IMG/VR virus record: IMGVR_UViG_2802429244_000007
Source: a virus
Lineage: Duplodnaviria; Heunggongvirae; Uroviricota; Caudoviricetes
Length of the DNA stretch: 4,536 bases
Strand: one strand, 5' to 3'
The notes beneath the pieces are model-generated. The model was not told where the DNA came from. It saw only the letters and a list, made by a program, of their open reading frames with translations, and made no database searches. How positions within the stretch are numbered: the stretch's first letter is position 1; each line of letters begins with the position of its first letter. Of this stretch, positions 1 to 4,536 are shown one piece after another. A program made the translations under genes and the position numbers.

Positions 1-24
1 AATAACAGCACATAATTTACGCAT
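1..24 (-). CDS. Start of a downstream ORF with a signal-peptide-like N-terminus (MRKLCAVI...), possibly a Lom/Ail-family outer-membrane protein; only 8 codons fall in the window
   Basis: ATG at minus 24-22, preceded by GAGAGG (plus 30-35, read on the minus strand) with a 5-nt spacer. The frame is open to the window edge and reads M-R-K-L-C-A-V-I. In lambda, lom follows J after a ~60-nt gap and its product begins MRKL... as I recall. Eight codons are not enough for a firm call. Confidence 0.3.
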
Positions 25-45
25 AATTACCTCTCGCTTTTCTGC

Positions 46-72
46 AATAAAAAAGGCGCCATTTCTGGCGCC
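46..72 (-). terminator. Probable rho-independent terminator downstream of J
   Basis: Minus-strand RNA would read GGCGCCA-GAAA-UGGCGCC followed by UUUUUUAUU. The stem is plus 55-61 paired with 66-72 (7 bp, six of them G:C), loop 62-65, and the T-tract corresponds to plus 46-54. It begins 20 nt after the J stop codon. Confidence 0.55.
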
Positions 73-91
73 CGTATCTGGGTTATAAAAT

Positions 92-3000
92 TCAACTGAT
101 ACTGATACCAGCTGTAGATTTCTTCATCACAACAACAAGAAGGTCGCTGATACTGGTCGTTGGCGTCCAGTTATTAGCACCATATGAAGAAACATTGAAA
201 GTCAGGGTGACATGGCCGTGTCCGGCAGGCATATCAATGACGGATGAAAATACCCTGCTGACATCCGTCGCGGGTTGCTGAAAGATTTCCTGTCCGTTCT
301 TCAACACCTGCAGCTTACAGGTTGAATACCAGTATGACTGTTGGTTGTTGCTGTTGAAGTTTTCATGCTTACCACCGCGAAACAGAACGGGTGGGATTAC
401 TATCTGACGGTCAAAAGCCTGGTCATCGTACACAGTGACCGTTATTGTACCGCTGGCATAACTGCCATTTCTCGGAAAGGCTTTTCCCACCGTTTTGACA
501 ATATCACCTTCAATCTGGTTGGCAGACAGTTTTCCCAGAATCCGACAGTTCTGGTTAATCGTGACATTGTTGAGCGTCCCGGAGTTCGCATTCACGTTAC
601 CGCTGATATCGGCATTTTTCGCCGTCAGCCGCCCGTCCGGTGTCAGGGAAAATACCGGAGGATTACCGCCGCTGGTAATGGTTGGCGCCGTCAGATACTT
701 CAGGAACACTTCGTTCATGAATATCTGGTTGCCCTGCGCCACAAACATCGGCGTTTCATTCCCGTTTGCCGGGTCAATAAACGCGATACGGTTAGCGGCA
801 ACCAGGAACTGGCTCAGTTTACCTTCCTCCGTATCCTCCATGCTGAGGCCAAGCCCCGCGACATAATGCCTGCCGTCTTCGGTCTGCTCAATTTTGACGC
901 CCCACATGGCATTCCATTTATCGTTGGCATCTTTCCACTCTTTCGAAAACTCCTCCAGTTTGCTGGCGTTATCCTCCGTCAGCTCGACTTTTTCCAGCAG
1001 CTCCTTGCCGAGATGGGATTCGGTTATCTGGCCTTTGAAAAAATCCAGATAGCCGGAAGCATCATCGCTCGCCTGACCGACAGCCTCCACGAATGCCGAT
1101 TTGCCAACAGTATTCACACTGCGGATATAAAAATAATAATCATGGCCCGGCTTAATATTGATACTGGCAGCTATCCAGTACAGCGCCGTGCCAAGATAGC
1201 GGGCTGTGGTTTCAACCTGCCTGATATCCGCAATCCGCTTTTCCGAGAACCAGAATTCAAACTGTACCGTCGGGTCATAAACGGCAAGATGCGGCGTTGC
1301 GGTTATCTGAAAATAGCCCGGCGTCAGATCAATCCTCGACGGTGCTGCCGGTGCGGCAATCCGGAACGATACCGATGCCGGATCGCCCTGCTGCCCCCAC
1401 GCATTTACCGCCCGGACTGTCAGCCTGTAGTTCCCCAACGCCAGTTGCGTGAATCGGTATGTGGTTTCCGTCGTCCTGGCCGTGCTGACCAGCCGCTCAC
1501 TGCCGTCATCCGCTGCCACGGTCAGGCGAAGCATAAAGCTCCCCCCCTTCACCACCTTCGGCGTATCCCAGCGCGCCAGCACCTGATATTCCCCGCTGTC
1601 TGCGGTGACTTCTGCGGTCAGGTGCTGCACTGCTGGCGGCGTGACACCATTCACCGTGCCGCTCTGGTCGCCGTCAAAGTGCGCCCCGTTATCCACGATG
1701 GCCTCTTTCTCCGGCACATGCTGCACAGCGGTGATGGCATACGTGCCGCCATCGTTCTCACGGATACTCACACAACGGAACAGGCGCTGGCGCAGCGTCG
1801 GCAGCTTCAGCCCCCACACGCTGTATTCGGCTATCCCGTCAGGCACCCGGCTCACTTTCACCTTCACGCCGTCGGTGACGGACTGGACCTCCACGCTGAC
1901 CGGATTACCCTGACCGTCAACCAGGCTTATCAGCGTGGTGCCGGAGGATGGCAGCGTGATTTCACGGTCGAGCGTCAGTGTCCGGGTCTGGCTGTTCACC
2001 GCCAGCACGCGCCCGCCGATGCTGATCCCCGCATAGTCATCATCACAGATTTCAATGACATCACCCGGTACATGGCGAAGCCCTTCGGCCCCCACGCTGA
2101 AGTCCACGGTCTGCGTTTCCAGCAGCTCCGTTTTAATCAGCCACAGCCCGGCGCGGTGTGCCTGCCCCCGACTGGTACAGCCAAAGGCATCCATCTTCGT
2201 GACGTTACGACCGTAACGGGCAATGGCCTGCGTGTCCTCCACAAGCTCTGTCGCCGTCTCCCAGCCGTTATCCGGGTCAATCCAGTTCACCTCAACGGCA
2301 TTATGGCGGTCCTTCAGGGCGCTGAAGCTGTAGCGGAACGGCGCGCCATCATCCGGCATCACCACATTACTGCGGTTATAGGTCCACACCTTATCCGACG
2401 GTCGGTCCTGCACGAACGTCAGCGTCTGCCCGTTCCATACCGGCATACAGCGCATCGACGAGCAGAAATCACTGAGAACATCCCACGCCTTACGCTGTGT
2501 GGTCAGGTAGGCATTACAGGTGATGCGCGGCTCCGTGCCACCAAAACCGTCCGGCACCGACTGGTCGCAATACTGGCCGATGACATACAGCGCCCATTTG
2601 TCCACATCCGCCACACCAAGACGTTTCCCCATGCCGTAGCGCGGATGGGTCAGCATATCCCACAGACACCATGCCATGTTGTTGCTGTATGCCGGTTTAA
2701 ACGTCCCGTCCCAGATACCGCTGTATTGCCGCGTCTGCGGGTTATAGTTCGACGGCACCTGCAGAATGCGCCCGCGAAGATGATAATTACGGCTCACCTG
2801 CTGACTGCCGAACTGTTCCGAGTCCACCTGCACGCCGACCAGTGCCGTGTTCGGGTAGCACTGTTTCACATCGATGATTTCGGTGTATGACGACCAGAGC
2901 GTTTTGTTCTGCAGCTGGTCTGTGGTGCTGTCCGGCGTCATCCTGCGCATCCGGATACTGAACGGGCGCGGCGGCAGGTTATCCACCACCACCGAGGCCA

Positions 3001-3490
3001 GATACTGTGAAGTGGTTTTACCCTTAATGGTGATGTCTTTTTCCGTCACCCAGCCACCGTTACGTTGTATCTGAACCAGCAGGCGGACTTCCGATGGATT
3101 CCTGTCCCCCTTTGAGGTGGTTTCCACCAGTGCCTGCACGCCGAAAGTAAAACGCAGACGGTCAATGTTTGCCGACGTGATGGTCCGGGTGATCGGCGTG
3201 TCATATTTCACTTCCGTACCCAGCACCGTCTCGGAGCCGGAGGATTCAAATCCCTCCGGCGGTGTCTGCTCCTGCTCACCTGCCCGGAACACCACCGTGA
3301 CGCCGGAGATATTGGTATTCCCCTCACTGTCCAGCACCGGCGTACTGTTCAGCAGCACGCTTTTTAATCCATCCCCCGGACCTTCAATCGGCCCTTCGCT
3401 GATGGCATCGATCACACTCAGCAACTGCGTGGATTTCAGGTTGTCCTTCGCTTCGCGCGGGGTATGCCCCTTACTGCTGCCTTTACCCAT
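92..3490 (-). CDS. J: Host specificity protein J / central tail fibre (tail tip, receptor-binding), lambda gpJ-like
   Basis: 1132-aa ORF, the same length as lambda gpJ. ATG at 3488-3490 (minus), preceded by GGAG at 3499-3502 with an 8-nt spacer; TGA stop at 92-94. The N-terminus [38 protein letters not shown]... and most of the protein match my recollection of lambda J. Residues ~615-805 show two fibronectin-III-like repeats. The last ~150 aa appear divergent (see findings). Confidence 0.95.
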
Positions 3491-3498
3491 TCGTCATG

Positions 3499-3502
3499 CT
3501 CC
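3499..3502 (-). promoter_or_regulatory. Shine-Dalgarno (GGAG) for J
   Basis: Plus-strand CTCC at 3499-3502 reads GGAG on the minus strand, 8 nt upstream of the J ATG at 3490. Confidence 0.5.
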
Positions 3503-3512
3503 ATAAACGACA

Positions 3513-3532
3513 AAACCGCCCGGAGGCGGTTT
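3513..3532 (-). promoter_or_regulatory. GC-rich stem-loop in the I-J intergenic spacer (8-bp stem, 4-nt loop)
   Basis: Plus strand 3513-3520 (aaaccgcc) is the reverse complement of 3525-3532 (ggcggttt), with loop cgga. It lies in the 60-nt spacer between the I stop (3551) and J start (3490). On the minus-strand RNA it is followed by UUUUGUCGUUUAU, a weak and interrupted U-tract, so it could be a partial attenuator or an mRNA stability/processing element. Confidence 0.3.
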
Positions 3533-3550
3533 CACATAAAATATTTTGCA

Positions 3551-4198
3551 TCATCGACCAATCACCACAACCTGACCACCATCCCCTTCGTCTGCCGTGC
3601 TGATCTCCTGAGATACCACGCGTGACCCCACGCGCATTTCACCGTACAGAACGGGCAGAACATTCCCCTGGGCAACCATGTTATCCAGTGAGGAGAAATA
3701 CGTGTTCTGTTTGCCGTTATCCGTTGTCTGTGTGCGGGGAGTTCTGGCTTTCGGTGCCAGCATCTGCGCCACACCGCCCAGGATCATACTGGCCCCTGCC
3801 GCATACATACCCGATACAGCCGCGGCACCCAGCCAGCCCACAGGGTTCCACCATGCCACCGCAATCAGCGCAGCCCCCAGCACTGCCTGAAAAACACCGC
3901 CACTTTTGGCACCCGCCAGACGCGGTACGATGTGGATCACGGCACCATTTGCCAGCGGCTCATTAAGACGGGCAGATAATTCGTTTTCGCCTGCATCACG
4001 CCCGGCAATGCGCACCTGATACCAGCCCTCATTCAGTTTCTGACGAAACGCCGGGAGCTGCGTGGCCAGCGCCCGGATAGCTTCGGCTCCCGTTTTCACA
4101 CGAAGGTCGATGCGGTGGCCAAATCGTTGCAAATCCCCGTAAAGGCAGATGCGTGCCATGCCCGGTGACGCCAGAGGGAGTGTGTGCGTCGCTGCCAT
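3551..4198 (-). CDS. I: Phage tail assembly protein I (lambda gpI-like)
   Basis: 215-aa ORF with ATG at 4196-4198 (minus) and TGA stop at 3551-3553. N-terminus (MAATHTLPLASPGMARICLYGDLQRFG...) and C-terminus (...KARTPRTQTTDNGKQNTYFSSLDNMVAQGNVLPVLYGEMRVGSRVVSQEISTADEGDGGQVVVIGR) match lambda gpI as I recall it. The Gly/Ala-rich hydrophobic middle segment seems shorter and divergent. A possible SD (GAGAGG, minus strand, at 4210-4215) sits 11 nt upstream of the ATG. It lies between K and J as in lambda. Confidence 0.9.
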   Translation of the reverse strand: MAATHTLPLASPGMARICLYGDLQRFGHRIDLRVKTGAEAIRALATQLPAFRQKLNEGWYQVRIAGRDAGENELSARLNEPLANGAVIHIVPRLAGAKSGGVFQAVLGAALIAVAWWNPVGWLGAAAVSGMYAAGASMILGGVAQMLAPKARTPRTQTTDNGKQNTYFSSLDNMVAQGNVLPVLYGEMRVGSRVVSQEISTADEGDGGQVVVIGR

Positions 4199-4536
4199 TT
4201 GTCGGTATACCTCTCTCGTTTGCTCAGTTGTTCAGGAATATGGTGCAGCAGCTCGCCGTCGCCGCAGTAAATGGCGGCATGATTCGGCACCGATGAACCA
4301 AAGCAGCACAGCAGCACATCGCCCGGCTGCGCCTCTGTCAGTGCGGCACGGTAAAAACCAGTCGCCTCCATATTGTCAAGATAGAGATTCTGGCCGTTAC
4401 GCCACCAGTCATCCCCGCGATGAAAATCCGGCATCTCAATTCCCGCCAGATGGTAAGCGTCCCGGAACAGCGTGTAACAGTCCGTCACCCCGTGCTCAAA
4501 GCGCCGCCCGGTGAGATGCGGCACACAGCGGAACTT
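4096..4536 (-). CDS. K: Phage tail assembly protein K (NlpC/P60-type Cys/His peptidase fold), partial: N-terminus lies beyond the window edge
   Basis: Open frame on the minus strand runs from the window edge (4536, codon-aligned, reading KFRCVPHLTGRR...) to a TGA stop at 4096-4098. The ORF-track 'M' at 4524 is actually a GTG codon inside the frame, so the true start is upstream of the window. The translation has a Cys (DCYTLF) and downstream His residues (NHAAIYCGDGELLHH) consistent with an NlpC/P60-like catalytic set. Its 3' end overlaps the start of the next gene by ~103 nt, as K does with I in lambda. Assignment rests on recalled similarity to lambda gpK and on synteny. Confidence 0.85.
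   Translation of the reverse strand, partial: KFRCVPHLTGRRFEHGVTDCYTLFRDAYHLAGIEMPDFHRGDDWWRNGQNLYLDNMEATGFYRAALTEAQPGDVLLCCFGSSVPNHAAIYCGDGELLHHIPEQLSKRERYTDKWQRRTHSLWRHRAWHASAFTGICNDLATASTFV

Follow-up and report, generated by a model that had tools for sequence, protein, structure and literature searches.

Does a J protein that follows lambda through most of its length, and departs from it only at the C-terminal end, also recognise a different receptor? The question is raised by gene J in a 4536-bp stretch of tailed-phage DNA (the window), which is the entire contig PTSP01000101.1 of draft assembly GCA_002965905.1 and ends within gene K at one side and 8 codons into lom at the other. A first-pass annotation of the window had described a lambda-like J body up to about residue 978 and a divergent end from about residue 979, and had read this as a possible mosaic switch of receptor. 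We have followed up this reading by alignment with lambda and related phages, by domain and structure matches, and by comparison with published receptor assignments.

A lambda-type J gene with a divergent C-terminal end

Gene J lies in a tail-tip block consisting of K (NLPC_P60), I (Lambda_tail_I), J and the start of lom, all on the minus strand (Table 1), and lom is annotated 3' of J in matching phages and Escherichia coli genomes as well. The J protein contains six J-specific Pfam families in the correct order (FNIII-A_GpJ, Phage-tail_3, Ig_J, Ig_J_second, Phage_Tail_Tip and Ig_GpJ_C) with E values of 1e-35 to 1e-42, all far beyond the cut-offs; the Ig_GpJ_C match covers residues 1010–1132 (E 1.5e-37). 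The domain series is complete, running from hub domains through two FNIII/Ig domains, a helical shaft and a beta-prism fibre to the Ig-like receptor domain at the C-terminus. By both this series and its gene position, the window J is a lambda-type tip attachment protein. Lambda gpJ (NC_001416; PDB 8xcj with LamB) has the same length, the same domain order, a homologous Ig-like C-terminal domain and the same K-I-J-lom synteny. Across the whole protein, amino acid identity is 98.2% to J of phage 1W, 93.3% to that of phage 21 and 89.7% to that of lambda, with lambda J aligned end to end.

Table 1. Positions of genes, segments and diagnostic codons in the 4536-bp window
Feature	Position	Strand	Basis and remarks
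lom, first 8 codons (MRKLCAVI)	1..24	minus	lambda J-lom junction alignment; gene runs off the contig end
Intrinsic terminator after J (GGGCGCC-AGAAAT-GGCGCC + T-run)	46..73	minus	terminator scan; right end of the phage 21-type cassette
Gene J, tail tip attachment / central tail fibre protein	92..3490	minus	1132 aa, intact; ORF list, Pfam and homology
Segment flagged as divergent, J codons 979–1132 and TGA stop	92..556	minus	last central straight fibre layers and Ig-like receptor-binding domain, phage 21 allele
Codon E1043 (phage 21 E1071)	362..364	minus	window matches GenBank phage 21
Codon I1032 (phage 21 V1060)	395..397	minus	sole amino acid difference from phage 21 in the last 176 residues
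Codons I997 and V998 (phage 21 I1025 and V1026)	497..502	minus	wild-type residues in the window; alignment numbering
Left junction zone, J codons 957–978	557..622	minus	codon mismatch lists; phage 21 identity turns near-perfect and lambda identity begins collapsing
Gene I, tail assembly / tip protein	3551..4198	minus	215 aa; Pfam Lambda_tail_I (E 1.8e-24), lambda I alignment
Gene K, NlpC/P60 tail tip assembly protein	4096..4536	minus	Pfam NLPC_P60 (E 6.5e-13); 5' end cut by the contig end

Alignment of J with lambda J (NC_001416) using MAFFT gave an amino acid identity of 96.2% (923/959) over residues 1–959, as against 50.9% (88/173) over residues 960–1132 and 46.1% (71/154) over residues 979–1132. 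Nucleotide identity to lambda in bins of 100 nt is 89–99% up to about window position 637, falls to 76% at 537–636 and stays at 54–67% thereafter, with dense mismatches starting abruptly at about codons 974–979. The GC content is 46.7% in 92–556 compared with 57.6% in the remaining J. This contrast between body and end is far beyond chance; instead of uniformly high identity along J, there is a sharp fall at the C-terminus. Both the lambda-like body and the divergent end of the first-pass annotation are thus borne out, its boundary being good to about 5–20 codons.

The divergence extends to loops with a probable role in receptor choice by lambda J. Maddamsetti et al. (2018, PMC6646904) described four indel hotspots in J as probable specificity loops, and the residues critical for lambda receptor evolution include 1012 and 1107 (Maddamsetti et al. 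2018, PMC6646904). These indel and critical-residue hotspots stand in here for a list of LamB-contacting residues of lambda J, which the main texts of Ge & Wang 2024 and of the Ur-lambda paper do not give, naming only loops L1–L4. Relative to lambda, the window J has lost 4 aa at the S1012 loop and 1 aa near 1107 and has gained 5 aa at the 1048–1049 loop, and therefore carries indels at three of the four hotspots. S1012 of lambda falls within the deletion, D1107 is replaced by N, and neither the residues nor the lengths of the lambda loops (hotspots 1012, 1048–1049, 1077 and 1107) are conserved.

The C-terminal module and its boundaries

This end is nearly identical to that of phage 21 J (OL657228, UMO75436), with which it shares 153 of 154 residues (99.4%) at 979–1132, 172 of 173 at 960–1132 and 175 of the last 176. 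Nine differences are found in the last 232 J residues, eight of them before residue 957. At the nucleotide level the last 154 codons differ from phage 21 at 11 positions, ten synonymous and one giving a conservative replacement (I1032 versus V), and the last 168 codons at 13 positions, 12 of them synonymous. Since ten of the 11 changes are synonymous, the two sequences appear to represent one allele under purifying selection. Isoleucine at the 1032 position is also found in phage 1W and in A8 gpJ, and the site lies within the strand DRQIV(V/I)PP, which is conserved with lambda. A megablast search with window positions 1–620 gave 97.6% identity to phage 21 and 98.8% to phages 4A7, 1W, 3W and Lambda_4C10. 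Judged by these alignments, the divergent end can be identified as the specificity allele of phage 21, already known and not novel.

The surroundings of this allele differ among the phages that carry it. Phage 21 has the same terminator after the gene as the window, but its J is 1160 aa long and includes another helical-shaft segment, which exceeds that of the window by 28 aa (only 46–56% identity over window residues ~820–920), and J is followed by stf instead of lom. The window shaft is lambda-type and lacks the 28-aa insert of phage 21. Phages 1W, 3W, 4A7 and Lambda_4C10 (e.g. OM475428, NC_049946) have the same chimera as the window, a lambda-type shaft with a phage 21-type module in a protein of 1132 aa, and their J is 98.2% identical to that of the window overall, with one difference (L985M) in the last 232 residues; they too have stf after J, not lom, and their genes I and K differ from those of the window in patches. 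The arrangement of this allele followed by lom is found in E. coli Z247 and APEC O1. Phage 434 (OL657226), a lambdoid phage using OmpC, has a homologous J with the same module organisation, but at 42.9% identity its module belongs to a separate allele class.

The 3' limit of the shared sequence can be placed closely. Identity to phages 21 and 1W continues through the T-run of the terminator and ends at about window position 48 in the alignment, beyond which the sequence resembles the ribosome-binding region of lambda lom. The equivalent site in OL657228 is annotated as a terminator. Together with the left junction, this delimits a phage 21-type cassette of ~570 bases (~window 48–620) in different surroundings. 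In the window the strong terminator of the cassette is followed directly by the ribosome-binding site and start of lom, while in phages 21 and 1W stf follows the same terminator.

J of the window is thus a mosaic of a conserved body and an end near-identical to that of phage 21, within an unbroken lambda-type domain architecture. Residues 960–1132 of J have been described as an independently recombining module in a classic case of lambdoid mosaicism (Maddamsetti et al. 2018, PMC6646904). In the exchange that we propose, a phage 21 module comprising the last beta-prism fibre layers, the C-terminal Ig-like receptor-binding domain and its own terminator would have been joined to a lambda/1W-type J body via homologous recombination, with the left crossover in conserved fibre-coding sequence (~codons 957–979) and the right one just past the terminator (~window 48). 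Residues at the receptor end of J change rapidly and form hotspots under laboratory evolution (Maddamsetti 2018, PMC6646904), so that the end could in principle have diverged in place by rapid diversifying point mutation with no exchange of a module. This is extremely improbable, as nucleotide identity, synonymous sites included, falls to 54–67% within a few codons, GC content is 11 points lower in the segment, and the segment is 97.6–98.8% identical to phages with other flanks, on the shaft side in phage 21 and downstream in phages 21 and 1W. The sharp drop in lambda identity, the shift in GC and flanks unlike those of phage 21 together argue for recombination rather than local divergence. 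The part of the earlier reading that stands is therefore the conserved body with an exchanged C-terminal module, which is now recognised as the phage 21 allele (153/154).

Two smaller mosaic patches lie upstream. The central hydrophobic part of gene I (~residues 68–140; window 3737–4036, minus strand) matches lambda, phage 21 and 1W at only 63–75% of nucleotides and has 8 aa fewer than in these three, while the N- and C-terminal thirds of the protein are nearly identical. We regard it as a second mosaic patch; this region of gene I is possibly membrane-spanning (Ge & Wang 2024). In gene K, window positions 4337–4436 (minus strand) are 75–81% identical to lambda, phage 21 and 1W between flanks at 91–100%, which makes a third small mosaic patch.

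Receptor assignment

The other part of the earlier reading, a switch from LamB to OmpC, FhuA or another protein, finds no support, since the module is the phage 21 allele and wild-type phage 21 uses LamB only (Borin 2023; Gerbino 2024). The phage 21 ancestor was scored 'L' in these studies: it does not lyse a lamB deletion strain, and it plates on cells with LamB as the sole one of three porins (Borin 2023; Gerbino 2024). A single substitution, I1025T, at a trimer-interface site that immediately precedes the receptor domain, adds OmpC to its range (Gerbino 2024), and additional J mutations add the use of OmpF (Meyer laboratory: Borin 2023, Gerbino 2024). Access to OmpC in phage 21 is governed by trimer stability and not by the contact loops alone (Gerbino 2024). 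Receptor typing was done with a laboratory stock of phage 21 that has K at 1071 (G18903A; Borin 2023), and the domain assayed in that phage therefore differs from the window domain at two residues (K1071 versus E1043, and V versus I1032). Because the module is near-identical to that of wild-type phage 21 and I997 is of the wild-type state, we consider LamB the most likely receptor of the window J, which would be engaged through loops unlike those of lambda. The receptor would then probably be shared with lambda gpJ, although the C-terminal module is not of the lambda (PaPa) class. This assignment is not certain, as the window shaft is lambda-type and fibre stability sways receptor breadth in phage 21.

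The fold of the segment is settled by its identities of 82% and 46% to solved chains. Along its entire length it aligns with two solved proteins, A8 gpJ (PDB 9wca) at E 1e-130, the best PDB match with 436 bits, and the lambda J chain in complex with LamB (8xcj) at E 1e-80. A model of the monomer cannot decide the receptor. A8 is a chimera of lambda J in which the C-terminal part derives from a natural E. coli phage, and many Stx1a-converting phages carry the A8 module with 100% identity. The protein is named 'A8 gpJ 713' in PDB entries 9wca and 9wcb, the latter of which also includes OmpC chains. A literature search found no paper describing 9wca or 9wcb. A8 gpJ belongs to the same receptor-domain clade as the window J, and its C-terminal 30 residues are identical to those of the window, but it has 28 substitutions, mostly in other loop regions than L2, and it binds OmpC and works without LamB. 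Specificity within this clade is thus labile, given that A8 was solved with OmpC at 82% identity.

A8 gives substance to the proposal that the window module binds OmpC, alone or with LamB, and has a specificity unlike that of lambda. It is the best PDB match (81.8% over 979–1132), its long L2 loop (20 residues) is identical to that of the window, and it depends on OmpC for the delivery of DNA into lamB deletion cells, with 9wcb solved in the presence of OmpC; moreover, phage 21 gains OmpC by one substitution, and a phage 21 module placed on a different shaft might have an altered trimer stability. We nevertheless find OmpC binding unlikely. The window differs from A8 at 28 of 154 residues and from phage 21 at 1 of 154, and its departures from A8 are concentrated at the L1, L3 and L4 hotspots (window residues 1002–1009, 1071–1079 and 1091–1103), or, taken in full, at residues 1002–1009, 1019–1031, 1059–1064, 1071–1079 and 1091–1103. 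Wild-type phage 21 shows no use of OmpC, I997 is wild type in the window, and I1032 lies in a conserved strand and is found in phage 1W as well. With 126 of 154 module residues identical to A8 (81.8%), whereas natural phages of the A8 class are 100% identical to A8, the window falls into a class distinct from the OmpC-binding A8 class. A narrower proposal, that a phage 21-type domain with I1032 and E1043 on a lambda-type shaft natively uses OmpC besides or instead of LamB, seems quite improbable; if it were true, this J would represent a naturally occurring variant with dual or switched receptor use that differs from a LamB specialist by only one or two residues.

Whether the specificity of this J is still in use is a separate matter. 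The window stands alone as a 4536-bp contig in a draft assembly, and such tail regions are present in E. coli genomes at a median of 3 copies and a maximum of 15, many of them in cryptic prophages, so J might belong to a defective prophage remnant in which receptor specificity has no current function. That is unlikely in view of K (partial), I and J, all of which are open and of full length without frameshift, and of the large excess of synonymous over non-synonymous changes relative to phage 21. The best explanation of the locus, in which we have good confidence, is a phage 21 module on a lambda/1W-type body, made by recombination and recognising LamB.

LamB use and the opening of the tail tip are inferred for the window J from its relatives. 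By analogy with lambda, the J trimer would present three receptor-binding domains, and the four bottom loops of each Ig-like domain would enter the extracellular mouth of a trimeric porin. Binding would then cause the domains to spread, the beta-prism to twist and the helical shaft to flip, with the tail tip opening as a result, following the mechanism described for lambda by Ge & Wang 2024.

In sum, the window J is an ordinary module swap of a known kind, for which the mosaic reading is right and the receptor switch is unsupported. The allele, the mosaic exchange, the receptor of the type phage and the evolvability to OmpC and OmpF have all been published, and the locus shows nothing of a new kind. 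A diverged receptor domain does not in itself predict a different receptor: LamB serves both lambda and phage 21, whose modules are 46% identical, while phage 21 and A8 use different receptors with modules that are 82% identical. This mismatch between divergence and receptor is relevant to the prediction of host range from J and to the design of J chimeras for DNA delivery.

Allele classes, occurrence and source of the window

The modules of sequenced phages sort into discrete classes by identity to the window: at least 99% in phage 21, 1W, the Lambda_ev phages and PhiR47_2; 89% in some Stx phages; 82% in Stx1a phages and Chlobot; 65% in VT1-Sakai; and 45% and 43% in lambda and 434, respectively. 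The OmpC siphophage phi330 was considered as a comparator and set aside, as it belongs to a different allele class that is 35–40% identical to lambda and 434. For the phages 1W/3W, 4A7/Lambda_ev and PhiR from ECOR strains, no outer-membrane receptor is reported in Berryhill 2023 or in the Chi-hotspot, SNIPE and svsR papers.

In 5,426 complete E. coli genomes, the 465-base segment was found at 95% nucleotide identity or higher in 1,083 records, compared with 98 of 5,426 for the last 465 bases of lambda's own J, laboratory strains among them. The receptor end of lambda is therefore a rare allele, and being 'different from lambda' is the default state.

No near-exact source of the window was found among the complete E. 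coli genomes, the best match being 95.7% identical across the whole window, and the exact J protein is recorded only on its own 4.5-kb contig. The break of the contig was probably caused by the presence of several similar lambdoid prophages in one genome.

Two further features of the window were noted. On the plus strand, opposite J, positions 341–2890 form an open frame of 849 aa that begins with TTG; we interpret it as an antisense frame that happens to be free of stops in a GC-rich gene, rather than as a gene itself. The interval between I and J contains a GC-rich hairpin, AAACCGCC-TCCG-GGCGGTTT, at 3500–3535 on the minus strand. It is not reported by the simple terminator scan of the window, and the annotation of phage 21 places a terminator within the same I-J interval.
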